In this document: positions 1,263-57,132 of the stretch, piece after piece
Position numbering within the stretch: the first letter of the stretch is position 1
Layout of the letters: each line of letters opens with the position of its first letter
Virus record (IMG/VR): IMGVR_UViG_3300048917_000273
Span: 1 to 57,132 of that record
Strand: one strand, 5' to 3'
Source: a virus
DNA length: 57,132 nt
Notes under the pieces: generated by a model
Told to the model about the DNA's origin: nothing
Databases searched by the model: none
What the model saw: only the letters and a program-made list of their open reading frames with translations
Program-made: the position numbers and the translations under genes

Positions 1263-3194
1263 CTACGGCGTGGTCACTGCGAGTGCGTCGGCGTACATGA
1301 CCAGCTGCGCACCGACGGCCCACGACGTCAGCTTTCCATACATCGAGACGCGCGCGATCGTGGCGCCAGCCGGGGGCTGGACACTCGCCACTGACAGCGC
1401 GCCGCCGCTCGCCGGGCCCGTGGTCAGATTGTCGACGCGCAGGGACGCCGACGCCGAGCGCCAGTCGATCTGCAGCTGCATGGAGCCGAGCACCGCGGTT
1501 CCCGCGAGCAGCTGCATCACGCCCCACATCGTGGCCGAGAAGCGGTACGCGGCATCCGTCGGCAGGGCGACATCCTGGTAGGCGCGCAGCGTGCCGTTCG
1601 TCCCGGCGTTCGTGGTGGTCACGGCGATCTTGAACGACGCCGTACCGACGGCGGCGAGGTCCGTGCTGCGCGCGCCGCTCGTCACGGCAGGTGTGAGGAC
1701 CGTCGACGACGCCGCCCAGCCCACGGCGTCCGTCTCCACCGACGGATTGATCGAGTGGTTCGTCGCGACGACCTGCGTGCCGGACGACGCCAGTTCGCCG
1801 GACGGGTACTCGGCCAGGTTCGTCGGAACGTCGGCAGCGAGGAGCGTGCCCCAGTTCGTGATCTCCGGCGTATAGCCGACGCCATACATACGCGGCTGCT
1901 CGGCCGTCAGGGTGAACTCGACGATGTAGCCCCAGCGCGCGTACGTGCCGCCGTAGCGCTCGCCGCGCTCGAGCTTCGTCTGGATGAGCGGAGCCGTCGT
2001 GCACTTCACGCCGTGCAGGACGCGGGTGTGCAGGTCGACGCGCGCGGTGTAGACCTCCCACGGCTCCTCGTCTGGATCGTAGGCCGGGGCGCACTCGACG
2101 AAGAACGTCATGTCGCTCGTTCCGCAGGACGAGCCGGGGTGCGTCGAGCACCCCTTCTCTGCGAGGCGCGAGTCGAGCCAGGAGAGCCCGTATTCGAGCC
2201 CGGCCTCCGACAGGGCAGTGAGCAGCACGCGGAAGCGCACAGCGCGCGACGTGCGCCGCTGGCGGCCGATCACGCCACCCTCGTCGATGCGCTCGACGAC
2301 CGGCGCCTGGTTCGTGGAGTCGGCGAGGTTCTCCGCCGAGATGCAGTAGACGCCGAGGAAGTCCTGCGAGTCGGCGTTGGTGAGCGCACCCTCGTCGTAC
2401 CAGGGCGCCTCGGAGATGTTGTCGTAGGAGTACAGCGTCGTCGGGTCGACGGGGTTCTCGGCGCGCGTCTCGTAGACGCTGGTCGAGGCATCCGGCGTCC
2501 CGGTCCACTCGTACTGGATCAGGCGGCCGCTCGGGTCGCTGCCGTCGAACGCGGGACCGGTGGTGCCGGATTCGGCGCACACGGACGAGACGTAGAACGT
2601 GGCGTACTCCGGGGTCAGGCCCGTCGAGTCGAACTCGAACAGCGCTGTCACCGCGCCCTCGGGTGGCACCTGCGTGGTGGAGACGATCGTCACCTGGTCG
2701 GTGGTCACCGCGGCGTCCGAGCCCGCGACCGGCGAGCCGATGGTTGCGCCGCCCGCGTCGCGCCAGGTGATCACGACGTGGAACGGGACCGAGCCAGCAT
2801 CGATGCACATCGACGCCTGCACGGTGAACGGGACATCCGGGGTGACCGGGACCGGAACGGTCCACTGCGCCTTCGTCGGCGTGACGCCGGAAGACACCAC
2901 CCAGAGGGCGGTGCCCATGTTGTTCGGCGCGTCGTCCTCGCGGCCCATGGCCACGGTCAGGCTGCCCCAGCCGGTGGTGTCGACGCCGCACTTCGGGTTC
3001 GTGACGAGGTTCGTGCGCACGACCGCCCACGGTGTGTACGTCGTCGTCTCGTCATCCGAAAGCATGTCGTAGATGCCATCGCACGGCACATCGTCGAACC
3101 AGTCGATCGGACACGGCGCCGTCTGCGCCGTCAGGATCGCCCTGGCGTTGTTGATGATCTCAGTGCCGCCGAAGCAGAAGTACCCGTCCCACAA
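1263..3194 (-). CDS. minor tail protein (first gene after tape measure) with carbohydrate-binding-module-like repeats
   Basis: ORF track, 643 aa. TTG start at 3194 with a GAGGGA SD 5 nt upstream. Repeated NLVTNP..TTGW and INPSVETDAVGW motifs. The FDGS..YEWTGT motif is shared with the 811-aa fibre. Confidence 0.75.
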   Translation of the reverse strand: MWDGYFCFGGTEIINNARAILTAQTAPCPIDWFDDVPCDGIYDMLSDDETTTYTPWAVVRTNLVTNPKCGVDTTGWGSLTVAMGREDDAPNNMGTALWVVSSGVTPTKAQWTVPVPVTPDVPFTVQASMCIDAGSVPFHVVITWRDAGGATIGSPVAGSDAAVTTDQVTIVSTTQVPPEGAVTALFEFDSTGLTPEYATFYVSSVCAESGTTGPAFDGSDPSGRLIQYEWTGTPDASTSVYETRAENPVDPTTLYSYDNISEAPWYDEGALTNADSQDFLGVYCISAENLADSTNQAPVVERIDEGGVIGRQRRTSRAVRFRVLLTALSEAGLEYGLSWLDSRLAEKGCSTHPGSSCGTSDMTFFVECAPAYDPDEEPWEVYTARVDLHTRVLHGVKCTTAPLIQTKLERGERYGGTYARWGYIVEFTLTAEQPRMYGVGYTPEITNWGTLLAADVPTNLAEYPSGELASSGTQVVATNHSINPSVETDAVGWAASSTVLTPAVTSGARSTDLAAVGTASFKIAVTTTNAGTNGTLRAYQDVALPTDAAYRFSATMWGVMQLLAGTAVLGSMQLQIDWRSASASLRVDNLTTGPASGGALSVASVQPPAGATIARVSMYGKLTSWAVGAQLVMYADALAVTTP

Positions 3195-7243: not shown

Positions 7244-7259
7244 GTCCCAAGCTTGGGAC
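7244..7259. repeat. 16-bp palindrome GTCCCA-N4-TGGGAC, copy
   Basis: GTCCCAAGCTTGGGAC. Intergenic, between the stop at 7263 and the chaperone ATG at 7193. Confidence 0.9.
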
Positions 7260-12607: not shown

Positions 12608-14344
12608 TCAGGCGGCGGCGGGAGCGCCGATGGCCGGGTAGCCGCTGGCGCCGTTGGGGTTCAGCTGGAAGCCGACGCGCACACCGTAGCCACGGGTGTT
12701 CGCGATGGCGAAGCCCTCCTCGACGAACGCCGCGGTGTACTCGTTGCCCGTGAGCATGTCGTGGTCGTAGACCGCGTCCAGCGAGATGACGTCGTTGACG
12801 AGGCGGGTGTACGCACCGGCCGGGTAGAGCACGACCTCGGCCACGGTCGGCCAGATCGTGTTCGTGACGGTGCCACCGGCAGTGCCCTTGGCGCCGTCGA
12901 CGAGCGGCTGGTAGTCGTACGGGAACTGCAGCTTGATGCCGCGGAGCGCCAGCTGAGCCTCGATCTCCGAGTCCGGCACGTTGAACGGGTCAGCGATGCC
13001 GAGGCGGCGGGAGACGTCGGTGCGGAGCGCACCCTTCAGCCAGAACGGAGCGAAGCCCTCGATCGTGGCTGCGGGGTCCATGGCCAGGTTCTGGCGGATC
13101 CGCATGGCGTTCAGTTCGAGACCGCCGAGCACGTCGGCGTAGCCCGAGTTGGAACCGGCCGCGGCGACCGGGGCCCAGGCGTAGACCGTGGTGATGTCGG
13201 CGATGATGCGCTTGATCGACTCGGCGCTCTTGCGGCGCTGGTGGCCCAGGCCGAGCAGGTTCAGCACCCGCTTGGTCAGCTCGGGGTACGCCGCGTTGGT
13301 GAGCAGCGGGGCGGTCGCGCAGAAGCCGATGGCGTCCAGGCGCACCTCCTCGAAGGGCGGGCACTCGAGCGCGTAGCAGGGCTTCGTGGTCCCAGCCTCG
13401 GCCTGCGTCTCAGTCTGGATGAAGCCCGCGTCGGTGTCCGCGAAGATCGTCATGAAGTCCGGACCCTTGGTGAACTGGATGCCACCGCGCTTCGCCGTGA
13501 CCTCGGGGAGGTCGAGCAGGCCAGCGTTGGTCTCGTAGCCGAAGAGATCGTAGATCGTCTCCGACGGAGCGCACCAGCCACCGGCCGCGATGACCGAGTT
13601 GCCCGAGAGGGCGTTCTCGTCGGACGCCGCCATGATCGCAGCGAACTGCGCCTCGAGCGACATCTCACGGTCGACCGAGAACTCGCGGCCCTCGTGCTTG
13701 ATGCGGGCGACGCCGTAGCGCTGGGCGCGCGGCGACAGGTTGTAGGTGCCGGGCTTCATGTCCTGAGGCACCGAGCCGCCGAACGAAGCAGCGCGGGAGA
13801 GGAACGCGGTGGCGACCTCGTCCATGCCGTTCAGTTCCTGGCCGCTGTTGAACTCGGGAACATTGGCGGCTGCCACGATGCTGTTCACGGACTTGGGCTC
13901 CTGGTTCTCCTTGGGGATGATGACGGCCGGTGCCTGCTTCGAGGCGGCGCGGACGACGGGGCGCTTGCTGCCGGATGCCAGCACGGCCTCCGGCTCGGCG
14001 ACGACCTCCGCCTCGGGCTCCGGCTCGGGCTCGGCGGCGGCCTCGGGCTCCGGATCGGCGATGGGCTCCTCGACGGGAGTCTCGGCGGTCGGCTCGGCGA
14101 GCGCGTCGACGCGGGCACGGGTCGCTTCGAGGCGAGCGGCGCGCTCCTCGGCGGCGGTGTCGATCTCGCCGACACGGGCGTCGATGGCGTCGACGTGGTC
14201 GAGCACGCTGTCGAGCGCGTTGAGGTCTTCGTCGCTGGCGTCGGCACCGAGCGCGTTGAGGCGGTCGATCTCGGCGCGTGCGCGGATGCGAGCCTCGAGC
14301 AGGTCGTCGCGGTTGAGGTCTGCGATCTCGGGGATCACGAACAT
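12608..14344 (-). CDS. major capsid protein (HK97-fold type) with N-terminal coiled-coil/acidic scaffold-like extension
   Basis: ORF track frame. The likely start is ATG 14344 (MFVIPEIADLN) with an AGGAGA SD. It carries GGWCAPSE and KPCYALECPP motifs and is followed by a hairpin. Confidence 0.85.
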   Translation of the reverse strand: MFVIPEIADLNRDDLLEARIRARAEIDRLNALGADASDEDLNALDSVLDHVDAIDARVGEIDTAAEERAARLEATRARVDALAEPTAETPVEEPIADPEPEAAAEPEPEPEAEVVAEPEAVLASGSKRPVVRAASKQAPAVIIPKENQEPKSVNSIVAAANVPEFNSGQELNGMDEVATAFLSRAASFGGSVPQDMKPGTYNLSPRAQRYGVARIKHEGREFSVDREMSLEAQFAAIMAASDENALSGNSVIAAGGWCAPSETIYDLFGYETNAGLLDLPEVTAKRGGIQFTKGPDFMTIFADTDAGFIQTETQAEAGTTKPCYALECPPFEEVRLDAIGFCATAPLLTNAAYPELTKRVLNLLGLGHQRRKSAESIKRIIADITTVYAWAPVAAAGSNSGYADVLGGLELNAMRIRQNLAMDPAATIEGFAPFWLKGALRTDVSRRLGIADPFNVPDSEIEAQLALRGIKLQFPYDYQPLVDGAKGTAGGTVTNTIWPTVAEVVLYPAGAYTRLVNDVISLDAVYDHDMLTGNEYTAAFVEEGFAIANTRGYGVRVGFQLNPNGASGYPAIGAPAAA

Positions 14345-17880: not shown

Positions 17881-19760
17881 GCTGCCTCGTCGGCCAGCTC
17901 AAGCATGAGATGGCGGGCCAGGGAGCCGCGATCGTACGGCGCCTGCGTGCGGAGCAGGGTGAGCGCATACTGCTGCAGCGCGCTGCGGTAGCGGTGCATC
18001 TCGATGCCCGGGTACGTGACGCCGTCCAGCGATGACCATGCGTCGTCGAGCAGGCGCATGCAGTCCGACACCGGCAGGCGCGGCACCTGCAGGTACAGGT
18101 CGCGGGCGCGGCTCGTCACCGTGCCCGAGCCGATCTGCGACTTCAGCTTGTTGCCCGAGCGTTCGAGCGCGCGGAAGATCGACTGCTCGGCGGCGAGGAG
18201 GATCGCGTCGACGACGAACGGCGCGATCGGAACGACGGCGGCGGATGCCGCAATCGCCTCCGAGTCGGCCGGGTCGGGGATGTCGACCGTCGGATGCTGT
18301 TCCAGCGACGGCTGCGGCATCTCACCGCGCTGCTGGCCGCCCGCGTCCGACGGGATGCCGGTGAGGCCGAGCTTCGCGAGCGCGGCCGCCAGCTGGTCGG
18401 GAGACGCCGAGGTCTTGCGCGCCAGCTGGGAGAGGAACCAGGTCATCCGCTCCTTCTGGTCTGGCGCATCCGAGTCCGGGTCGAAGCCGTTCTCGATGAG
18501 CAGGGTGCGGCCGGAGATCTCGCCGCGGTCCCAAAGCTCGAACGCCTCCTGCGAGCGGTTCGGGCGCAGGCGCATCGCGGCGGTGTTCGCCTCGATGCTG
18601 TAGTCCTGCCAGTCCTCCACGTTCCACGCACGCAGGATCGGGTGCAGGTAGCCCTGCGTCAGCGAGGAGACGATGACGGCGAGCAGCGGCTCGGAGTGGA
18701 TCTTGATGGCCGCCTCGTCCGTCTGCCAGGACGACCAGTGGTTCATGTCGGCGGTGCCGGTGATGACCTCGGGCGGCATGTCCATGCCGACACCAACGGT
18801 CTTGCGCGCCTCCTCGCGGAGCTTCTGCGTGTACTCGTCGAAGCCGGTCCAGAAGTCGATCCACTGGACCTTCTCGAGGAACTCGCCCGGGGCGGCGATG
18901 ACCAGCGGGATGCCGGCGGCGGCCGAGTCGCGATCGCGCATCGCGATGGAGGCGATCTTGATCATCCGCTGGGTGAGCCCCTCGGAGATGCCGTCGGCCT
19001 GCTGGACGGACTGCATCTCCTCATCGGAGACGTCGAGCGTGGTGACCGGCATGGCGGGCATCTCGAGTTCGGACGGGACGAACAGGATGCCGTTGCCCTT
19101 CAGGCGTGAGTCGGCCTGCGACGCCACGACCTGATTGAGGCGCACGATCTCGGAGAGGGTCGGCAGCAGCGCGCGCGCCGGGCAGTCGCTGTCGATGGAG
19201 CTACGGGGGTGTGCCTTCCACAGGCGGATGGGCAGAGCGTTCGGGTCGATCGGCTCGCCCTCCACCGTCATGTTCCCGGTGGTCTCACCCTGCACTTCGA
19301 CGGACGCGACGACCATCCAGTCGTCGTCGTCGTTGGGATCCTTCGCGGGCGTGCCGATGATGAACGCCTCGCCCGCGACGGTGAAGTTCACGCCGAGCAG
19401 GCGGAGCATCTCCTCCTGGCCCTCGGTCCCGCCGAACAGCGACGCCATCGCGTCGAGCACGAGCGGGTCCGTGGCGGGCTTCCCGTCCTTGCCGACGGCG
19501 TACAGGATCGCCTTCGACAGCAGGTTGCCGACGTACGAACAGCCCGAGCGGAACTCGGGCACCTGGTCGTACATGTCCCAGAGGCTGTTCTGCCACTCGC
19601 TCCGCCTGGTCCGGCGGCCGACCTGGCGCAGCTTCTGCGCGCCGGGCCCACCGCCAGGAGCATAGGTCTTCGCCGATGCGACCAGCGAGTTGCTGGGTGT
19701 GCCCTCGATCGGACTGGGGGTGTTGACCACCTCGTACCGATAAACCGTTCCCCGCGGCAT
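17877..19760 (-). CDS. portal protein
   Basis: ORF track, 627 aa. Size and position between terminase and the MuF/protease gene support the call. Its stop overlaps the downstream start. Confidence 0.8.
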   Translation of the reverse strand: MPRGTVYRYEVVNTPSPIEGTPSNSLVASAKTYAPGGGPGAQKLRQVGRRTRRSEWQNSLWDMYDQVPEFRSGCSYVGNLLSKAILYAVGKDGKPATDPLVLDAMASLFGGTEGQEEMLRLLGVNFTVAGEAFIIGTPAKDPNDDDDWMVVASVEVQGETTGNMTVEGEPIDPNALPIRLWKAHPRSSIDSDCPARALLPTLSEIVRLNQVVASQADSRLKGNGILFVPSELEMPAMPVTTLDVSDEEMQSVQQADGISEGLTQRMIKIASIAMRDRDSAAAGIPLVIAAPGEFLEKVQWIDFWTGFDEYTQKLREEARKTVGVGMDMPPEVITGTADMNHWSSWQTDEAAIKIHSEPLLAVIVSSLTQGYLHPILRAWNVEDWQDYSIEANTAAMRLRPNRSQEAFELWDRGEISGRTLLIENGFDPDSDAPDQKERMTWFLSQLARKTSASPDQLAAALAKLGLTGIPSDAGGQQRGEMPQPSLEQHPTVDIPDPADSEAIAASAAVVPIAPFVVDAILLAAEQSIFRALERSGNKLKSQIGSGTVTSRARDLYLQVPRLPVSDCMRLLDDAWSSLDGVTYPGIEMHRYRSALQQYALTLLRTQAPYDRGSLARHLMLELADEAA

Positions 19761-23843: not shown

Positions 23844-24267
23844 CCGCCTGCTCCACTTCTGCGGGGTCGATGACGGTCAGGCGCACGGCCATGCGAACGT
23901 CGCCCAGGGTTGCCTCGACGGTCTCGGTGGATCCGGCGCCGAGGAAGCGCGCGCGGCCGATCTGCATGGAGCGGCGACGCAGCTGGTCGATGCAGCCGCA
24001 GTACAGCGCGTAGCTGTACGCCTTCGCCGCCATCCACGAGATGTCGGCGACCTTGTCGCTGGTGAACTCGATGCGCAGCAGGATGCCCGCCGAGTCGGTC
24101 GACTGGTCGATGACGCCACGGCCGACGGCATAGGGCACCGGAACCCAGCGCCCGGAGCCATCGCTGAGGGCCTCGGACTCCATCTGGCGCTGCATCAGCT
24201 GCAGGGTCGAGTAGCCCCAGTCGCTCAGGTCGATGAGGCGGATGCGGGATTCGAGCTTGGTGCTCAT
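23836..24267 (-). CDS. hypothetical protein
   Basis: ORF track, 143 aa, with an ATGA overlap with the upstream gene. Confidence 0.75.
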   Translation of the reverse strand: MSTKLESRIRLIDLSDWGYSTLQLMQRQMESEALSDGSGRWVPVPYAVGRGVIDQSTDSAGILLRIEFTSDKVADISWMAAKAYSYALYCGCIDQLRRRSMQIGRARFLGAGSTETVEATLGDVRMAVRLTVIDPAEVEQADA

Positions 24268-24704
24268 CTCAGTTCCTCCATGTTCGGCTTGGGTGTGATG
24301 CGCCGGGCGTCAGCCCAGACTTTGCGGGATCCACGCCAGCCGACGTGGGGGTTGATCTGCCACATCGTCGACGACGAGCGCAGCAGGATGCCTGCCTTTC
24401 GCAGCGGGGCGATGGCGCGGTAGAAGTTCTTCGACGTGAGCCCAGCTTCGGTGGCGATCTCCGTCGCCGTCATCCGCGCCCAGGGCTGTCCCTCGCGATA
24501 GTCGGCGAGCACGACGTCGATGATCTTCATCTGCGTAGGCGACAGCGCCGAGAGGTACTCGGCCAGCGCGTGCACTGGGATCTGCATGTACATCACCTCT
24601 TCATCGGCGTACGCTCGGCGTTGCGGAGTCCTGACCTTGGCCGGAGTGATCTCGCCGTTCTCGTGAATCGTCCCGACTACGGGCCCGTTGAATTCCCCTG
24701 GCAT
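24264..24704 (-). CDS. winged-helix DNA-binding protein, first gene of the leftward arm
   Basis: ORF track, 146 aa. MTATEIATEAGLTSKNFYRAIAPLRKAGILLR resembles a MarR-like wHTH. Confidence 0.7.
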   Translation of the reverse strand: MPGEFNGPVVGTIHENGEITPAKVRTPQRRAYADEEVMYMQIPVHALAEYLSALSPTQMKIIDVVLADYREGQPWARMTATEIATEAGLTSKNFYRAIAPLRKAGILLRSSSTMWQINPHVGWRGSRKVWADARRITPKPNMEELR

Positions 24705-25908: not shown

Positions 25909-25950
25909 TTGGTGCCTCCCGGCGGTAGGTGCCGTTCCCCTGCGGAACGA

Positions 25951-25987
25951 CTAGGTACATAGTCCACCCTAGCGGGGCGAGTGTCAA
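25951..25987 (-). promoter_or_regulatory. leftward promoter PL with a CTAGG/CCTAG inverted repeat
   Basis: In minus sense: TTGACA (plus coordinates 25982-25987), then ctcgccccg, CTAGGG, tg, GACTAT. The inverted-repeat arms are at 25951-25955 and 25968-25972. The layout matches the three rightward promoters. Confidence 0.5.
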
Positions 25988-26008
25988 GTCTGGTTGCGCT
26001 GTGCAACT

Positions 26009-26039: not shown

Positions 26040-26076
26040 TTGACACGGTCCCAGCTAGGGCATAGAGTTCTCCTAG
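26040..26076 (+). promoter_or_regulatory. rightward promoter PR1
   Basis: TTGACA, a 17-nt spacer, then TAGAGT (26063-26068). CTAGG (26055-26059) and CCTAG (26072-26076) flank the -10. Confidence 0.65.
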
Positions 26077-26137
26077 TTGTTCAGCCAAACGGGCTGAGCG
26101 TCGGACGCCGCGAGTGCGGCGGAATGGAGCGGTTCAG

Positions 26138-26278
26138 ATGGAACGACGTACACGCCTGGTGCCGAATTGGCAGGGCATCGGAACCTGGTGCCTGATCCTG
26201 GCGGCCGTGGCGCTCGCCGTCGCCGCCGCATATGTCCCGGCGATGGTTGCCCGGGCGGCCGTGGGGTGCGGCGCATGA
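26138..26278 (+). CDS. small membrane protein (46 aa)
   Basis: Hand translation: MERRTRLVPNWQGIGTWCLILAAVALAVAAAYVPAMVARAAVGCGA. ATGA overlap with the next gene. It is below the ORF-track cutoff. Confidence 0.4.
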   Translation: MERRTRLVPNWQGIGTWCLILAAVALAVAAAYVPAMVARAAVGCGA

Positions 26279-26763
26279 GCGCGCGTCGGCGGTCGACACA
26301 CGTTCCCGTGTCCCGACGTTGGGACGCGGCCGTAGCCGCGACCGTAGGCGCGTCCATCGTGGCGCTGATCACGGGCGGCGCGCTGGTTGCGGCGGGCGGA
26401 CACGCTGCCGAACCGGCCGCGGCCGCGCACGTCGTGAGCGTGCCGGGCGGCGCGTCGGACGCGCTCCGGATCCGACACACGGCACCCGTCCCGGATGCCG
26501 CGCCGCGCCCCGCTAAAGTGGCGCGGTTCACCCCGGACGCGCCCCGCGTGGCACCCGTCCCGAACCTGACCGGCGCGCTGGTGCCATGCACGTCGGAGGA
26601 TGCACCCGGCCCGTGCTACTGGGACGCCGGCACGGCCGGTAACGGCGTGGGCACGTCGTGGCTGGCCTGGCACGGCCGCGTGTGGTACCCGATCCCGCAT
26701 GGCGACACCAGCGTTACGTTCCGCGGCGTGACGTACTGGGACAGTGGCACGGCGTCGGAGTGA
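26275..26763 (+). CDS. signal-anchored/secreted protein
   Basis: ORF 26167..26763 frame, from ATG 26275 (MSARRRSTHVPVSRRWDAAVAATVGASIVALITGGALVAAG...). Cys/Trp-rich C-terminus. Confidence 0.65.
   Translation: MSARRRSTHVPVSRRWDAAVAATVGASIVALITGGALVAAGGHAAEPAAAAHVVSVPGGASDALRIRHTAPVPDAAPRPAKVARFTPDAPRVAPVPNLTGALVPCTSEDAPGPCYWDAGTAGNGVGTSWLAWHGRVWYPIPHGDTSVTFRGVTYWDSGTASE
26310..26325. repeat. 16-bp palindrome copy (arm variant)
   Basis: GTCCCGACGTTGGGAC. Coding, read as SRRWD. Confidence 0.85.
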
Positions 26764-26800: not shown

Positions 26801-26837
26801 TTGACACGGTCTGAGCTAGGCCGTAGTTTGTACCTAG
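26801..26837 (+). promoter_or_regulatory. rightward promoter PR2
   Basis: TTGACA, a 17-nt spacer, then TAGTTT (26824-26829). CTAGG at 26816-26820 and CCTAG at 26833-26837. Confidence 0.65.
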
Positions 26838-26863
26838 TTGATCCGCCCGGGTCGACAGTGAGC

Positions 26864-26895: not shown

Positions 26896-27123
26896 ATGAG
26901 CACCTACACTTCCACCGATGAGACCCTGATCGGCGAGACACCCGAACGCATGACCGGCGCCGAGCGCCGGGCGCACCGCCGCATGGCCGACGCTGAACGC
27001 CACCTCATCGCGGTGCTGACGTGGGGCACTGACGAACCGCCCACGGCCGCCGCCGTCGACGCGGCCGAAGCGCGATGCAACCGCGCATACCAAGTGTGGC
27101 GGCGGGCATGCGGGGCGCGCTGA
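26896..27123 (+). CDS. hypothetical protein
   Basis: ORF track, 75 aa, with a GAGGATGAC SD. Confidence 0.65.
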   Translation: MSTYTSTDETLIGETPERMTGAERRAHRRMADAERHLIAVLTWGTDEPPTAAAVDAAEARCNRAYQVWRRACGAR

Positions 27124-27140
27124 TCGCCGCCGCCGTGTGC

Positions 27141-27161
27141 GGCCAGGCATCCGGCCTGGCC
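27141..27161 (+). terminator. weak hairpin
   Basis: GGCCAGG-catccgg-CCTGGCC. Confidence 0.3.
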
Positions 27162-27254
27162 GCCGCGGCCGCCCGCGTGGCGTGGCGCCGAGTCCGGCAT
27201 CCCCGGCTGCCAGCCAGCCAGCCCAGTCGGGCCGCCGCCCGTCCCCGCCCGGCT

Positions 27255-27397
27255 GGTCAATGAAGATCGCTGCCCGGCCACCCGTCGGTCAATGAAGATC
27301 AGCCAGCCCCCGCGGCCGTGGTCAATGAAGATCGCGGTCGCGGGCTGGTCAATGAAGATCGGCTGTCCCAACCCTGGGACGCCGGTCAATGAACATC
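27255..27397 (+). repeat. iteron-like array: 5 direct copies of GGTCAATGAAGATC (last copy GGTCAATGAACATC)
   Basis: Copies at 27255-27268, 27287-27300, 27320-27333, 27347-27360 and 27384-27397, spaced 32, 33, 27 and 37 bp. The array is intergenic and AT-richer than its surroundings. Confidence 0.9.
27365..27380 (+). repeat. 16-bp palindrome copy
   Basis: GTCCCAACCCTGGGAC. It lies between iterons 4 and 5, 31 nt before ATG 27412. Confidence 0.9.
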
Positions 27398-27411
27398 GAA
27401 AGGAATCCCTG

Positions 27412-27759
27412 ATGAGCACCGAAAAACAGATCGCCGCTGATGTGGCCCGAGGACTGTACGCCGACGGCGTCATCGGCCTGCGAGCCATGCGCCCAGTGAG
27501 GGCTGCTGTCGAGCGAGCACTCAAGGAAGATCGAGCACAGCGTCCCAACGTTGGGACGGATGCTGCCGAAGAGGCGGCCGTCGACGAGGAGATGCTGTCG
27601 TCCGCCCAGTGGGTGGAGCGCACCGGCATCCGCATCCTCGACCCGGACGGCTGGCCGCGCAACGAGTTCGTCGCCGCATGGGAGAAGCCCATCACCCGCG
27701 CCGAGTTCATGGCACGAGCAGCGCTGTCCACCACCTGGGATCCGGAGGCCGCTCAATGA
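27412..27759 (+). CDS. hypothetical protein
   Basis: ORF 27292..27759 frame, from ATG 27412 with a CGAAAGGAATC SD block. The upstream part of the listed ORF is the iteron array. Confidence 0.7.
   Translation: MSTEKQIAADVARGLYADGVIGLRAMRPVRAAVERALKEDRAQRPNVGTDAAEEAAVDEEMLSSAQWVERTGIRILDPDGWPRNEFVAAWEKPITRAEFMARAALSTTWDPEAAQ
27542..27557. repeat. 16-bp palindrome copy
   Basis: GTCCCAACGTTGGGAC. Coding, read as RPNVGT. Confidence 0.9.
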
Positions 27760-28055
27760 AGACTCCCGAGCAGATCGCTGAGGAGATCGTTGCCCGCCAC
27801 GCAGACCTGACCCTCGACGACCTCGGCCTCGCAGCCGAGAGCATGATCGTCGAGGCGATCCATGCTGACCGTGCACAGATGAACGAGCCGGAGGACACAG
27901 GCCCCGGGAGCGGCGACCTCTGCGTGCTCGTTTCCACATTCACCGTCGAGCACTACCGATGTGACGAGTATGCCGACGGCACCAGAACAAGTTCGATCGA
28001 CGGCCATGTCGTCGTCCCGCCCAAGCCGGGCGCACTGAAGGGATTCAACCGATGA
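27756..28055 (+). CDS. hypothetical protein
   Basis: ORF 27609..28055 frame, from ATG 27756 (ATGA overlap). Confidence 0.7.
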   Translation: MKTPEQIAEEIVARHADLTLDDLGLAAESMIVEAIHADRAQMNEPEDTGPGSGDLCVLVSTFTVEHYRCDEYADGTRTSSIDGHVVVPPKPGALKGFNR

Positions 28056-28529: not shown

Positions 28530-28551
28530 GCACTCATCGAAAGGGAATCGC

Positions 28552-35403: not shown

Positions 35404-35668
35404 CGAGTACCCCCTGCCCGACCCTGGCCGGGAGCGCTTCTGGCACGGAGTGCACAACCCGAGCAGCGTGAAGACGCCGCTCACCCTCGAGCTTCGCGAG
35501 CGCACCGTGGCCAACGCCAAGGCTGCTGTCACGTTCTCGAAGCTCATCGCCAAGCAGCCGACGATCGCCGACCCGAAGGCGGTCAAGGAAGCAGCTGACG
35601 AGATCCTCATCCGCGCCGAGCGGGTCGACGACTTCATCGGCATCCTCAAGGAAGGAGAGGCCGCCTGA
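35387..35668 (+). CDS. hypothetical protein
   Basis: ORF track, 93 aa, with a GGAAGGAAG SD. Confidence 0.7.
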   Translation: MTKTPDEYPLPDPGRERFWHGVHNPSSVKTPLTLELRERTVANAKAAVTFSKLIAKQPTIADPKAVKEAADEILIRAERVDDFIGILKEGEAA

Positions 35669-35943
35669 TGCCCACCCAGGATCTGCGCAAGATCACCCTG
35701 CCCAAGACGCTCGACAAGCGCGTGAAGCGGTACGCCGCGAAGCACGGCATGAGCGAGTCTGAGGTCATCCGCACCGCGATGACCCAGTTCGAGGTCGCCC
35801 GCTACCCGGCCGAGAAGCCGGAGATGGTGAGCAAGACCATCTACATCTCACCGCCCGAGTACGGCGCCTTCACCACGAAGGCACGCAAGTCCCACACCAC
35901 CATCCGCCACGCCCTCGAGATCGCCTTGGAGAACCTGCTTTGA
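35668..35943 (+). CDS. ribbon-helix-helix DNA-binding protein (possibly tandem RHH)
   Basis: ORF track, 91 aa. ITLPKTLDKRVKRYAAKHGMSESEVIRTAM is followed by a second similar unit, IYISPPEYGAFTTKARKSHTTIRHALEIAL. Confidence 0.7.
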   Translation: MPTQDLRKITLPKTLDKRVKRYAAKHGMSESEVIRTAMTQFEVARYPAEKPEMVSKTIYISPPEYGAFTTKARKSHTTIRHALEIALENLL

Positions 35944-36395: not shown

Positions 36396-36455
36396 ATGCG
36401 CACATCTAGTGCCACGTCATCCACCTACCCCCAGATCTTGGGGTGCGAGCGATGA
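36396..36455 (+). CDS. 19-codon upstream ORF translationally coupled to the initiator gene
   Basis: GAGGAGA SD followed by ATG 36396 (MRTSSATSSTYPQILGCER). Its TGA overlaps ATG 36452 (ATGA). Confidence 0.35.
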   Translation: MRTSSATSSTYPQILGCER

Positions 36456-37222
36456 GCATCCGCCGCACACGCCTCGCCTTCGAGGACCACTTCACGCAGG
36501 TGCCGAACCAGTGGGTTCGCGATAAGCGGCTTACCCGCAAGGCTCGCGGCCTGCTTGTCGAGCTGATGAGCCACCGTCTCGGGTGGGAGATCACGATCGA
36601 ATCCCTCATCCGTGACGGCATCGAAGGCCGCGACTCCATCCGTTCAGCGATCCAGGAACTCGAGGATGCTGGCTATCTGCATCGAGAGCGCGAGCGCAAC
36701 AGTGACGGAACGCTGGCAGGCACGGACTATGTGATCGTCGATCCATGGAGTGCGGATGAACCTACGTCGGATAATCCTACGCAGGCTAATCCACCCACAA
36801 AGAAGACCATCACTACAGAAGACCATCATCAAGAACTCTCTCGAGTAGCGGATCATTCATCTGCCATCGACGCCGAGTTCGCCGCCATCTGGGAGGCGTG
36901 GCCGAGGAAGGTCGGCAAGGACAGCGCACACAAGCGCTGGTCAGCCATGAGCCCGAGGCTGCGCACCGAGGTGACCTCCATCCTCGTCGAGCACGCCAAC
37001 GTCTACCGGACGTACCCGGCGCAGGAGAAGCAGTTCATCCCGCACCTGGCGACCTGGCTCAACCAGAAGCGCTGGGAGGACGAGACGCCGCAGACGCGCG
37101 CTGCCGACGGCAAGGTCAAGCCGCCGGAGCCGAAGCAGCCTGAGCGCTTCACTCTGCCGCCCGGGCACGTCCGCGTCTACGACGAGGTCACCGGCCAGGT
37201 CATCGGAACGAGGCCCGCATGA
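36452..37222 (+). CDS. replication initiator / helicase-loader-like protein (N-terminal winged helix)
   Basis: ORF 36443..37222 frame, from ATG 36452. wHTH region GRDSIRSAIQELEDAGYLHRERE. C-terminal region FAAIWEAWPRKVGK..IPHLATWLNQKRWEDE. It lies directly upstream of the helicase. Confidence 0.6.
   Translation: MSIRRTRLAFEDHFTQVPNQWVRDKRLTRKARGLLVELMSHRLGWEITIESLIRDGIEGRDSIRSAIQELEDAGYLHRERERNSDGTLAGTDYVIVDPWSADEPTSDNPTQANPPTKKTITTEDHHQELSRVADHSSAIDAEFAAIWEAWPRKVGKDSAHKRWSAMSPRLRTEVTSILVEHANVYRTYPAQEKQFIPHLATWLNQKRWEDETPQTRAADGKVKPPEPKQPERFTLPPGHVRVYDEVTGQVIGTRPA
36802..36828 (+). repeat. direct repeat GAAGACCATCA x2 (16-bp period) in a lower-GC patch of the initiator gene
   Basis: Copies at 36802-36812 and 36818-36828, with neighbouring TAATCC x2. 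Confidence 0.6.
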
Positions 37223-45279: not shown

Positions 45280-46256
45280 CCAGCCAGGAACTCGTCGTCC
45301 AGTCCACCGCCTACAGTCGCGCCTCACTCGAGGAGCGTCAGCGCTACACCGCGGCGCTTGCCACCGCAGGCGACCTGCTGCCCGGCAGCATGCAGACCAT
45401 GCAGCGCGTCGACGGCCAGATGAAGAAGGTCGGCGACCGCGGCAAGGTGATGCTCATGGCGGAGACCGGCGACATGCTCGGCATCCACCCCATCGCCGCG
45501 CTCACCGGCGTGCACATCATCGAGGGCAAGCCGTCCATCTCGGCGAACCTGATGGGCGGCCTGGTGCGCAAGGCGGGCCACCGCCTCCGCGTCCGCACCG
45601 AGGGCAAGCTCGAGGACAAGACGCTCACCGCCACGGCGACGCTCGTGCGCAGCGACGACCCCGACTTCGAGTTCAAGGTCGTCTGGGACGTGGCCAAGGC
45701 CGAGCGCGCCGGGCTCTACCCCGGTAAGCCCAAGTCGAACTGGCAGACGTACACGGAGGCCATGCTCAAGGCGCGAGCGATCTCCGAGGTCATCCGCGAG
45801 GGTGCGCCCGACGTGCTCATGGGCGGCAACGTCTACACGCCGGAGGAACTCGGCGCGCAGGTCACCGAGCAGGGCGACCCGGTCGAGTACGAGGCCGCGC
45901 CGAGCGAGCCGCGCCCGGCCGTGCCGCCGCAGGAGAAGGTCGCTACGCCGATCGTCGACGAATCGACCGGCAACGCGGATGCCGCACAGGGATTCGCCGA
46001 CGCCGCGGCCGCCGCCGGGACGCGCGAGGACGTGCTCGAGATCTTCCGCCAGGCCAAGATGGCTGGCCAACTCTCCACGCTGATCTTCGTCGGCGACGAG
46101 GAACAGGAACTCGGGCAGTTCATCATCGGCATCGGACAGGCCATGGCCGTCGCCGAGACGGAGAACGGCGAGCCGATCCCCGACGAGGGTGAGCCCGTCG
46201 TCATGGACGAGGAGGTCGTCATCGCCGAGGTCGTCGAGGATGGCAGTGACTCGTGA
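45276..46256 (+). CDS. recT: RecT-family single-strand annealing protein
   Basis: ORF track, 326 aa. GIHPIAALTGVHIIEGKPSISANLMGGLVRKAGH. It is adjacent to the exonuclease. Confidence 0.8.
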   Translation: MTSQELVVQSTAYSRASLEERQRYTAALATAGDLLPGSMQTMQRVDGQMKKVGDRGKVMLMAETGDMLGIHPIAALTGVHIIEGKPSISANLMGGLVRKAGHRLRVRTEGKLEDKTLTATATLVRSDDPDFEFKVVWDVAKAERAGLYPGKPKSNWQTYTEAMLKARAISEVIREGAPDVLMGGNVYTPEELGAQVTEQGDPVEYEAAPSEPRPAVPPQEKVATPIVDESTGNADAAQGFADAAAAAGTREDVLEIFRQAKMAGQLSTLIFVGDEEQELGQFIIGIGQAMAVAETENGEPIPDEGEPVVMDEEVVIAEVVEDGSDS

Positions 46257-46549
46257 GCGATCGCATCCTCAATGTCCGGGTCTCCGAGGATGAGATGGCG
46301 AAGGTCGACGACCTCGCCGTGAAGATCGGGTCGACGCGGTCGGAGGCCGTGCGCTACCTCATCTTCCGCAACCTGCCGACGCCCATCGATCTCGACGAGG
46401 GTATCTGGCTGACGCGGTATCGCAACGATCCGCTCTCAGTGGGGGTCGACTTCTGGGCTGACGAGACGACAGCCCTGCGCGCGGCGAACAAAGACGAGAG
46501 TCTCATCGCCGAGCGGCATCCCGTCCGGCGGGCAGATGCCCGCGCGTAA
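46253..46549 (+). CDS. ribbon-helix-helix (CopG-like) protein
   Basis: ORF track, 98 aa. LNVRVSEDEMAKVDDLAVKIGSTRSEAVRYLI. Confidence 0.7.
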   Translation: MSDRILNVRVSEDEMAKVDDLAVKIGSTRSEAVRYLIFRNLPTPIDLDEGIWLTRYRNDPLSVGVDFWADETTALRAANKDESLIAERHPVRRADARA

Positions 46550-47755: not shown

Positions 47756-48219
47756 TGGGTTCGCTCATTGACCTAACCGGGCGACGCTTTGGAAAGCGCG
47801 TCGTCATCCGACGAGAGTATCTCCCCGGCGAAGCCGGTAAGACTCACTGGCTCGTGCGATGCGACTGCGGACGCGAAGACGTGGTGCAGGGAGGGCACCT
47901 GCGCCGCGGGGAGCGTGCGCAGCAGTGTCGCGACTGTCAGGGGCTCGCCAGGAGACAGGAGATTCCCCGGTACCTTAGGGCGCACGATCGCGTGCGACGA
48001 GCACGCGGCAACGCCAGCGACTACCCCTGCGTGGAGTGTGCCGCTGGCGCTCGTGAGTGGGCGCTGATGCACGAGACGACCGAGCGTCTTACCGGCGAGT
48101 GCAATGGAGTCGTCATGGAGTACTCGCGCAACGTGGATGACTACCAGCCGATGTGCACGCGGTGCCACCGGAGGTACGACGCTGACCATCGAGCCGCAGA
48201 GGAGGCACGCCGTGGCTGA
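47755..48219 (+). CDS. HNH-type endonuclease-like protein
   Basis: ORF track, 154 aa. Multiple CxxC pairs and YQPMCTRCHRRYD. Confidence 0.6.
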   Translation: MGSLIDLTGRRFGKRVVIRREYLPGEAGKTHWLVRCDCGREDVVQGGHLRRGERAQQCRDCQGLARRQEIPRYLRAHDRVRRARGNASDYPCVECAAGAREWALMHETTERLTGECNGVVMEYSRNVDDYQPMCTRCHRRYDADHRAAEEARRG

Positions 48220-49186: not shown

Positions 49187-49219
49187 AGAGCCCCCCACCT
49201 GGATCAGGTGGGGGGCTCT
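49187..49219. terminator. bidirectional terminator between the convergent arms
   Basis: AGAGCCCCCCACC-tggatca-GGTGGGGGGCTCT gives a 13-bp perfect stem. On the plus strand it is followed by a T-rich sequence, acgtgtttct. Confidence 0.75.
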
Positions 49220-55828: not shown

Positions 55829-57132
55829 TGATACCTCCCGACGAGTTCGACGGCGATGTCCACGTTGTTCGGAGCCTCGGTCGACGGGGTGTCGACGACG
55901 ACGAAGTACGAGATGCCGCACGTCAGCACCGGCCACGTCGGCGGCGCGTCGTCCGATCCGTAGAGCAGGTGCGATGCTGTCGTCGCCGCGCCACCAGAAA
56001 CCTCAGCCCATGCGCCGCCGGATACGCCGTCGATGGTCAGGGTCGAGTTCGCCGGGATGTACGAGATCACCTGGTCAGAGCACCAGTCGTCACCGTCGAT
56101 CTGGTCGAACGTGCGATTGAACGGGTTTGCGTAGAAGCGCACGCGCACCTGGCGCTCGGCCTGGTCGCCGGTGGTCAGCACGACGATCGGCACCGAGTCG
56201 AAGAACTCGGCCACCTGGCCCGTCTTGATCACACCCCAGTAGCGCTGCCACTCGATGATCGTGTCGATGCACGCGTCATCGATGACCGGCGGCCGCGGCG
56301 GCGTCGGCGGCGGCGGGCAGTCGGGATCTGCGAGCGGGTCCACCACCGCGGTGTTCACCATGCGGATCGACTGCGACGCGTTCGTCGTGTCCAGCCACGA
56401 GTAGAGGTAGCTCGCGTCGTTCGGCGTGCTGCCATCGAAGTAGGGGTACAGCGTCGTCAGGGTGATCGCGATGCCGTCGGCGAGGATGGTGTCACCACCG
56501 ACCCAGATCGACCAGCCCGTCGAGCCAGGGGCATCCATTGCCGACACGCGCCCGTGCACGGCGCCGATCGGCGCGGTGCCGGTGGCGATGAGGCGTGTCG
56601 GGGAGTCGGTGGTCACAGCGACGACGTCGCCCAGGGAGCGCCCGACCTCGACGCCCGCGGCATCCGACCAGACGAGCACCGCGCGCATCGGCTGAGGGCG
56701 CGACGGCTGGACGTGGATGGATCCCCAGTACGTCGCGCCGCCGACGACATCGGCCAGCGTCGCGAGATCGATCGTCATGCCGAACTCGTACCCTGCGCTC
56801 GCTGGGTTCTGATCGGAGATCACGGTGTAGAGCACCGAGTAGTTCCCGAACATGCCGCCCGTGCTGCGCTGGCACGCGACGTTGCCACCGAGGTCTGTCA
56901 GGGCGGCCCACCCGGTGGGAACCCATCCCCGTGCGACCGACTTGGACTTGTTCACCGTGCCGGTCCACTGGTAGTCGATGTCTGCCGAGTCCGCGGTCGC
57001 GCCGTCGAAGTAGTCACCCGGCGACGTGTTCGGATTCGGCTGCTTCAGTGTCACCCACGCCGACCAGTCGGTCTGCTGCGCGTTGGCGTAGATCGCCGAG
57101 GCGCGCCAGCGGTACGTCGCACCCGGCGTCAG
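55825..57132 (-). CDS. C-terminal part of the 811-aa FN3 fibre gene (same gene as 1..1252; 57006..57132 duplicates 1..127)
   Basis: ORF 55825..57054 is in phase with the open frame at 1..1252 once the overlap is collapsed. The YFDG..Y.W.GT..S.S motif occurs twice. There is a PPPPTPPRPP linker. Confidence 0.85.
   Translation of the reverse strand: MTPGATYRWRASAIYANAQQTDWSAWVTLKQPNPNTSPGDYFDGATADSADIDYQWTGTVNKSKSVARGWVPTGWAALTDLGGNVACQRSTGGMFGNYSVLYTVISDQNPASAGYEFGMTIDLATLADVVGGATYWGSIHVQPSRPQPMRAVLVWSDAAGVEVGRSLGDVVAVTTDSPTRLIATGTAPIGAVHGRVSAMDAPGSTGWSIWVGGDTILADGIAITLTTLYPYFDGSTPNDASYLYSWLDTTNASQSIRMVNTAVVDPLADPDCPPPPTPPRPPVIDDACIDTIIEWQRYWGVIKTGQVAEFFDSVPIVVLTTGDQAERQVRVRFYANPFNRTFDQIDGDDWCSDQVISYIPANSTLTIDGVSGGAWAEVSGGAATTASHLLYGSDDAPPTWPVLTCGISYFVVVDTPSTEAPNNVDIAVELVGRYQ
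57006..57132. repeat. terminal direct repeat identical to 1..127
   Basis: Read directly. Confidence 0.95.

Follow-up and report, generated by a model that had tools for sequence, protein, structure and literature searches.

Actinobacteriophages carry many conserved short repeats near gene starts, among them the stoperators, the SAS/ESAS sequences and the motifs of clusters O, EG and EC, and a function has been assigned to the stoperators only. Stoperators, the sites of L5 gp71 in cluster A mycobacteriophages, are thought to block elongation (PMC4351075, in the part drawn on here). The others comprise the 18-bp inverted repeats of cluster EG Microbacterium phages, the 17-bp inverted repeats of cluster O mycobacteriophages, the 18-bp asymmetric motif of cluster EC and the SAS-ESAS of clusters K/EF. 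In the parts of PMC7302621 and PMC4351075 used here, these start-associated motifs appear as short, conserved sequences 14-30 bp upstream of early-gene start codons that are kept across relatives and have no function assigned. Here we describe a tandem array of five copies of an asymmetric 14-bp motif at 27255-27397 of an uncultured phage genome (IMG/VR record IMGVR_UViG_3300048917_000273; the whole stretch of 57,132 nt is called the window below). As the same motif occurs in three distant relatives, the array is probably a site controlling gene expression and not a replication origin, a conclusion drawn from the analysis of four metagenomic sequences.

Four exact copies of GGTCAATGAAGATC (starts 27255, 27287, 27320 and 27347) and a fifth, GGTCAATGAACATC at 27384, with one mismatch, all lie on the + strand and together occupy 143 bp of the 288-bp gap 27124-27411, just as an earlier note on this DNA had described them. 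From base composition, 8.7e-5 exact copies of the 14-mer would be expected by chance in the whole window, and none of 100 dinucleotide shuffles matched the observed number of sites at up to three mismatches. The repeats (43% GC) are AT-richer than their surroundings, again as noted earlier, with 74-85% GC in the spacers and 67% in the genome. The spacers, of 13-23 nt and unequal in size, have only this GC richness in common, and just 14 nt are conserved per period of ~32 nt. Since the four 14-mers are identical while the spacers have diverged, selection acts on the 14-mer. The copies follow one another at 32, 33, 27 and 37 bp, corresponding to 3.0, 3.1, 2.6 and 3.5 helical turns. The range of 27-37 bp given in the earlier note is therefore correct, but its approximation to three helical turns holds for only two of the four intervals, and the sites are not phased.

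We built a position weight matrix (PWM) from the copies of the three relatives, excluding those of the window. It scored the array copies at 23.4-23.8 bits and the next best window site at 17.5 bits, so that strong sites in the window are confined to 27255-27397. No further full copy exists anywhere in the window, in agreement with the earlier note, whose only partial match (at about 47765) was recovered at 47764 on the - strand (GGTCAATGAG). Weaker copies are present at 27519 and at 27751 (GCTCAATGAAGACT, with a core TCAATGAAGA that matches at 10 of 10 positions), and the start of gene 28052 bears ATGAAGATC.

Tandem Repeats Finder reports a period of 32 bp with 77% matches, and the core of the motif matches real gene junctions at 27751 and 28052. 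Both observations would fit a non-functional relic of tandem duplication, or of recombination between gene starts of the TCAATGAAGATC type, in which a stop/start ATGA junction is followed by codons for M-K-I. Such an origin is highly unlikely, given full divergence of the spacers around four identical 14-mers and the retention of the motif in three other phages without shared flanking homology.

These three phages, here called L036, L060 and L063, are likewise metagenomic and share the core GGTCAAYGAA(S). In all four genomes, the copies examined lie on the sense strand of early genes, in leaders or at gene starts. L063, an IMG/VR contig with a terminase 68% identical to that of the window phage, is the closest relative found. 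It has no array; its single copies, (A/G)TCAAYGAAGATC or TCAACRAACC, either directly adjoin a palindrome or occupy codons 3-7 (from +6) of three consecutive, otherwise unrelated genes. There the motif imposes the codons GAA and GAT, which make up 12-13% of the Glu/Asp codons in the window's genes, and this forced use of rare codons argues for a constraint at the nucleotide and not the peptide level. In the window, the starts of both genes after 27412 (27756 and 28052) also resemble the motif (GCTCAATGAAGACT and TTCAACCGATGAAGATC), echoing the three consecutive motif-bearing gene starts of L063.

L060, a second IMG/VR contig (large terminase 44% identical to the window's), has an array consisting of GTCATTGAACG and two copies of GGTCAATGAACG, with spacings of 12 and 14 bp. 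The copies are located 3' of a terminator-like hairpin and a clear TAGACA-18-TATAAT promoter and 5' of the ribosome-binding site (RBS) and ATG of the next gene. Lying between promoter and RBS, this array is thus predicted to be inside a 5' untranslated region (5' UTR). Its position is roughly syntenic with that of the window array, as the open reading frame (ORF) two genes upstream is similar to window gene 26167..26763. L036 is a soil metagenome contig of 1.2 kb and 69% GC. It carries, in intergenic DNA, two copies of GGTCAATGAAGATC followed by GGTCAATGAAGTTG and GGTCAATGAACTTC (spacings 28, 17 and 17 bp), with a palindrome, an RBS and an ATG downstream in that order; a fifth copy directly adjoins another palindrome. 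Between L036 and the window we found no clear protein similarity, and DNA matches are limited to the repeats.

Conservation in related phages, a point raised in the earlier note, thus extends to the core in L036, L060 and L063; neither motif nor array was found in the examined part of Hyperion or in the early regions of Kithara and Rizwana. Against GenBank phages, neither megablast nor blastn gave a match for the array region, and short-query blastn searches, run with the array or the L063-type composite, returned chance-level matches only. Scanning IMG/VR for a pair of exact 14-mers returned none, a pair of 10-mers returned L060 as the sole relevant match, and a three-copy pattern returned nothing relevant. 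A metagenome scan for motif copies yielded one relevant match, L036, among low-GC satellites, and the scan of a genome collection yielded none. The motif was absent from contigs with homologues of the 28052 protein (at most 62% identity), and IMG/VR look-ups with the 28052, 75-aa, DUF932 and L036 proteins returned no matches. Two distant relatives have short direct-repeat clusters of their own in early or terminal non-coding DNA, with unrelated sequences: L112 has CACAACAATGCA three to four times in a divergent intergenic region (2145-2270), and Kithara (L114) has CGGTCACCG four times near the right end and CCCTCGCCGC three times with a 21-bp period (18274-18395, 14163-14215).

A GTCCCA-N4-TGGGAC palindrome, GTCCCAACCCTGGGAC, does lie between copies 4 and 5 (27365-27380), but it is not peculiar to this gap. 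GTCCCR-N4-YGGGAC has 18 exact copies in the genome versus 1.8 expected (an expectation that allows up to one mismatch), located at 7244, 23195, 26009, 26310, 26864, 27365, 27542, 28209, 28514, 29666, 29996, 31199, 32288, 34596, 36244, 41222, 43245 and 48656. Most fall in the early arm, in the interval 26-37 kb. About half of the 18 are situated no more than ~50 nt upstream of start codons and are followed by a conserved leader of the CGAAGGGAATCGC type. The window palindrome belongs to the inverted-repeat class of clusters EG and O. Hyperion has its own version of the palindrome, GATCAACC-NN-GGTTGATC; that of L063 is N3-spaced (GTCCCA-N3-TGGGAC), and L036 has GGTGACA-N4-TGTCACC. Judging from the arrangements in L063 and L036, the 14-mer is the asymmetric partner of the start-associated palindrome, a pairing that had escaped the earlier note together with the palindrome family itself.

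In the window phage, late genes are transcribed leftward from ~25.9 kb, and early and middle genes rightward from two sigma-70-like promoters at 26040 (TTGACA-17-TAGAGT) and 26801. The latter probably drives gene 26896..27123 plus read-through into the array. No sigma-70-like promoter was detected within the gap 27124-27411, so the genes from 27412 on should depend on read-through across the array. Gene 27412 opens a co-oriented + strand block that extends to ~49155. Its ATG, 14 nt after the end of copy 5, is preceded by the RBS-like AAAGGAAT (leader CATCGAAAGGAATC), which resembles leaders of other genes, and in an identical Logan contig (SRR35925705) the gene call begins at the equivalent position and gives 115 aa. 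These observations support the earlier view that the extension of this ORF to 27292 is an artefact; the JGI gene call (P0050) has the extended form of 155 aa (27292-27759), which runs through the array.

The ~130 bp upstream of the array (27124-27254) have 84% GC, and the leader folds with z = -6.5. In the predicted fold of 27298-27356 (-38.6 kcal/mol, z = -6.4), the AATGAA of copy 3 is placed in a loop, and the copy-3 hairpin competes with an 8-bp hairpin at copy 4. Rfam gave no match, PADLOC no defence-gene neighbours, and neither PADLOC nor Pfam a match for the downstream proteins. The 27412 and 75-aa proteins recovered only themselves from 5.8e9 protein clusters, the latter having in addition its L063 homologue (tblastn); this lack of homologues suggests that closer relatives have not yet been sampled. 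Features of the region are collected in Table 1.

Table 1. The array, its flanking signals and the adjoining genes; positions are those of the window.
Feature	Position	Strand	Remarks
Nearest upstream sigma-70-like promoter, TTGACA-17-TAGTTT	26801..26847	+	Repeats the 26040 promoter over 47 bp at 77% identity (second copy)
Upstream gene, 75 aa	26896..27123	+	L063 homologue with 46% identity (tblastn)
GC-rich hairpin directly 3' of the stop codon of the 75-aa gene	27132..27169	+	-36 kcal/mol, z = -5.3; terminator-like, without U tract
Repeat copy 1, GGTCAATGAAGATC	27255..27268	+	23.4 bits with the non-window PWM
Repeat copy 2, GGTCAATGAAGATC	27287..27300	+	Exact match; PWM
Inverted repeat from spacers 2 and 3, 46 nt, near-perfect	27303..27351	+	Stem of ~19 bp, 2-nt bulge
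Repeat copy 3, GGTCAATGAAGATC	27320..27333	+	Exact match; PWM
Repeat copy 4, GGTCAATGAAGATC	27347..27360	+	Exact match; own 8-bp hairpin possible, -10.6 kcal/mol
Palindrome GTCCCAACCCTGGGAC between copies 4 and 5	27365..27380	.	-17.2 kcal/mol with flanks
Repeat copy 5, GGTCAATGAACATC	27384..27397	+	3' end merges into the conserved leader/RBS CATCGAAAGGAATC (compare the leader at 28530)
First downstream gene, 115 aa	27412..27759	+	C-terminal match to phrog_11725
Degenerate copy, GCTCAATGAAGACT	27751..27764	+	Overlaps the ATGA stop/start junction of gene 27756; 13.7 bits

Three promoters of this genome share an architecture of ~40 bp (TTGACAC..GCTAGG..TAGAGT/TAGTTT..CCTAGTTG), at 25950-25990 (-), 26040-26086 (+) and 26801-26847 (+). 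At the divergent junction, one of them thus points left and two point right, and similar sequences are present in L063. The rightward and leftward arms converge exactly at a terminator-like hairpin with a 15-bp stem (49187-49219).

We read the array as functional and as linked to the leaders and starts of early genes. We tentatively favour, at a little short of an even chance, a cis-regulatory gate of several sites that heads the early/middle block and is read by one sequence-specific factor. Located in the transcribed leader, such a gate would separate two immediate-early genes from the long early/middle block that begins at 27412. Each 14-nt unit would serve as a putative recognition site for the factor, and five sites within 143 bp, placed after a terminator-like hairpin and before an RBS, would favour binding at high occupancy, which in turn would set how much expression enters the 27412 genes. 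The likeliest form may be an orientation-fixed roadblock to transcription elongation on DNA, similar to a stoperator. The gate draws support from selection on the 14-mers, from the presence of the same core in the independent phages L036, L060 and L063, from the PWM scores of the window copies, from the constant sense-strand orientation, from the lack of a detected promoter in the gap, and from several small DNA-binding proteins encoded by the phage. It also comes close to one of the options in the earlier note, an operator with several sites in front of the 27412 operon, which is compatible with all findings and near to the best explanation. The sequences show the repeats, their conservation and strand, where they lie with respect to promoters and start codons, and the hairpins; binding by a factor, the nature of this factor, its action on DNA or RNA and the direction of its effect are inferred.

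Candidate binders among the phage proteins are the ribbon-helix-helix (RHH) proteins 35668..35943 and 46253..46549 and the winged helix-turn-helix (wHTH) protein 24264..24704. The RHH family binds direct-repeat arrays. Protein 35668..35943 (91 aa) matches RHH_1 with E = 3e-5, and 46253..46549 is also of the RHH_1 type. For the former, a single-sequence AF2 model had low confidence (pLDDT 65) and PDB sequence matches were insignificant. By eye, the same protein may hold a second RHH-like repeat C-terminally, and two such repeats would make it a single-chain pseudo-dimer like TraY of the F plasmid.

Several points weigh against the gate. None of the candidate binders, RHH and wHTH proteins included, is linked to the motif, and the sequence data fit DNA and RNA recognition alike. 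Cooperative binding to one face of the DNA is unlikely, as the spacing is not helically phased. Strong sites occupy only one locus in the window, whereas stoperators are dispersed, and neither a recognisable immunity repressor nor a sign of lysogeny was found among the ~50 ORFs scanned (Pfam, PADLOC). Identity of the motif across phages with differing palindromes hints at a conserved factor, possibly the host's, and would suit a conserved factor of the host at least as well as a phage regulator. Finally, there are just three other instances, all metagenomic, and the array was present in no isolate searched.

Recognition at the RNA level is less probable than the gate but well short of far-fetched. 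The 14-mers would then be single-stranded, AU-rich sites in a 5' leader, recognised or cut by a host or phage protein that binds RNA or acts as an endoribonuclease. They would separate the immediate-early transcript, ending at the 27132-27169 hairpin, from an mRNA beginning with the palindrome hairpin, and the stability or the translation of the latter would depend on this cleavage or binding. All copies examined indeed belong to transcribed leaders or first codons and are in sense orientation, and the L060 array lies wholly downstream of its predicted promoter. The irregular spacing of 12-37 nt would be tolerated on RNA. AU-rich motifs alternate with GC-rich spacers that fold, in keeping with the z-score of the leader, and in copies 3 and 4 of the window, as in copy 3 of L060, AAUGAA(C) occupies the loop of a hairpin. 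One 3' and one 5' hairpin frame the gap, and the combination of an identical motif with differing palindromes suggests a conserved host machine. However, no structure is conserved around the motif, and inspection shows no hairpin for copies 1, 2 and 5 of the window or for most of those in L036. There was also no Rfam match, and exact conservation over 14 nt exceeds the need of known general RNases. In addition, the putative protective hairpin precedes copy 5, which is followed by the RBS, and cleavage at this copy would therefore remove the hairpin.

More speculatively, and with rather low probability, GGTCAAYGAA(S) may be one half of an undescribed two-part control element of early genes in uncultured Microbacteriaceae-type phages, the other half being the phage-specific palindrome. 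The strand-specific half, identical across phages, might then be read by a conserved factor, possibly of the host, and the tandem array might be a high-avidity loading site or a sponge for this factor. Its role could be to gate the passage from the immediate-early phase to later expression, or to signal a pause during genome entry.

The earlier note had also considered replication-origin iterons. Iterons, or a locus for replication control to which the phage initiator binds, would agree with five same-orientation repeats in a non-coding gap, with their AT-richness relative to the surroundings, and with the presence in the same genome of an initiator-like HTH_36 protein ahead of a DnaB helicase. 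Some phages, such as SPP1, have a second origin far from the initiator gene. We nevertheless consider this quite improbable. The spacing is irregular and unphased (27-37 bp in the window, 12-28 bp in the relatives), and an AT-rich unwinding region is missing, with 84% GC upstream and coding DNA of 62-64% GC downstream. The HTH_36 gene (36452..37222) and the helicase gene are 9 kb from the array, and the initiator-like gene has repeats of its own with an unrelated sequence. Moreover, the L060 copies lie 12-14 bp apart inside a 5' UTR, and the L063 copies are dispersed in coding starts.

The repeats of the initiator-like gene span 36753-36828 and consist of CGGATRAWCCTACG two to three times, in the forms CGGATGAACCTACG, CGGATAATCCTACG and GGCTAATCC, followed by AGAAGACCATCA twice. 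They lie in the stretch of lowest GC (53-56%) in the profiled region of 25-38 kb, a short way ahead of the gene for the DnaB helicase. The 36.75-kb region is therefore listed as the better candidate origin, in an arrangement like that of the lambda O gene.

The genome looks like that of a lytic-type, uncultured siphovirus of high GC (67%), an actinophage of the Microbacterium type. The ends of the contig, 1-127 and 57006-57132, are exactly identical, and this 127-bp overlap indicates a circular assembly and a complete genome of ~57,005 bp. At the DNA level, matches to Curtobacterium phage Sunfish and to phages of Microbacterium, Hyperion (cluster EG) among them, are short and partial, and the best large terminase in GenBank is only ~41% identical to the window's. 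On these comparisons, the phage is distantly related to the cluster EG Microbacterium phages. Its lysis genes encode a holin and a LysM-domain lysis protein. ARAGORN predicts a tRNA-Thr(CGT) at 2473-2550 (+) within the - strand ORF 1263..3194, which may be a false positive.

A centromere-like site, another suggestion of the earlier note, would have to partition a plasmid prophage. The direct-repeat architecture is the one feature in its favour; the scan of ~50 ORFs gave no match to integrase, repressor, ParA, ParB or ParR, and PMC7302621, in the part used, describes the relatives as lytic. The array is almost certainly no such site.

Five sites in 143 bp with flanking hairpins resemble cosB-type sites and the injection-stop region of T5, and the array could accordingly be imagined as a DNA-handling signal near a genome end, either a binding site for the small terminase or a pause signal for ejection or entry. 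In cluster EG relatives, the junction at which early and late genes diverge bears short terminal repeats (PMC7302621, same part); an EG-like junction in the window would be at ~25.9-26.1 kb, and the array would lie ~1.2-1.4 kb from the end. A role of this kind is nonetheless very improbable, because the physical ends are not defined in a contig that is a circular assembly, because the terminase genes are 5 kb off on the other arm, and because dispersed L063 copies at gene starts are unlike a single packaging signal.

Other assignments were tried and rejected. The locus is no CRISPR array, as repeats of 14 nt, separated by 13-23 nt, fall below the 23 nt expected of CRISPR repeats with spacers of similar length. 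Although an ATG is present in every copy, no usable Shine-Dalgarno sequence was seen on inspection ahead of these mini-ORFs. Inspection likewise gave no consistent -10 partner, at these spacings, for the reverse-strand TTGACC as part of a promoter. To our knowledge, the motif is unlike the sites of DnaA, LexA, IdeR, GlxR/CRP, PhoP, MtrA, DasR, ArgR and HspR, and a literature search with the motif string returned only unrelated primer sequences.

The locus offers a compact and testable case, with an exactly conserved asymmetric motif present five times in one 143-bp leader and common to phages whose palindromes and genes otherwise differ. The identity of the binder, and the level (DNA or RNA) at which it acts, could reveal how early expression is timed in lytic actinophages, and the motif could yield a portable control element for high-GC hosts. 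The analysis also corrects an attractive but weakly founded call of a replication origin and points to a better candidate.

Among the systems mentioned at the outset, stoperators resemble the array in being asymmetric sites of 13-14 bp that are oriented with transcription and lie in transcribed DNA near gene boundaries, not at promoters. They differ in number, distribution and context: ~25-30 stoperators are dispersed over a temperate genome with a known immunity repressor, whereas the array packs its five sites into a single locus, and no repressor was found in this lytic-type phage. The two sequences are unrelated, and stoperator-like dispersal is partial in L063 and absent from the window. 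With the start-associated motifs, the array shares the position near early-gene starts and the conservation among relatives (here L036, L060 and L063). Those motifs, however, occur once per gene, and the array has five copies before one gene (four in L036, three in L060).

Like the array, the iterons of P1, lambda ori and RK2 are sets of several same-orientation repeats (of 14-22 bp) in non-coding DNA. In contrast to the array, they are regularly spaced, adjoin an AT-rich unwinding region and lie in or next to the initiator gene. The operators of RHH proteins (omega heptads, MetJ metboxes, ParG/ParR sites) are also arrays of short direct repeats and are read by small proteins. Two RHH_1-type proteins of the phage are candidate readers, and nothing ties either of them to the array. 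RHH operators are contiguous or regularly spaced and overlap promoters, whereas the spacers of the array measure 13-23 bp and are unequal. RNA leaders and sponges (TRAP GAG repeats, CsrB, ToxI) similarly have repeated short leader motifs, some of them in hairpin loops. TRAP repeats are triplets with spacers of 2-3 nt, a regularity the array does not have, and ToxI consists of full 36-nt identical repeats followed by toxN, a partner gene without counterpart here.

A tandem asymmetric cluster paired with a palindrome that varies between phages is not described in the parts of PMC7302621 and PMC4351075 used for this comparison. As far as these parts go, dispersed start-associated repeats and stoperators are what is known in actinophages, and the array appears to add to them a tandem stack of an asymmetric motif, accompanied by a phage-specific palindrome and found across dissimilar phages.

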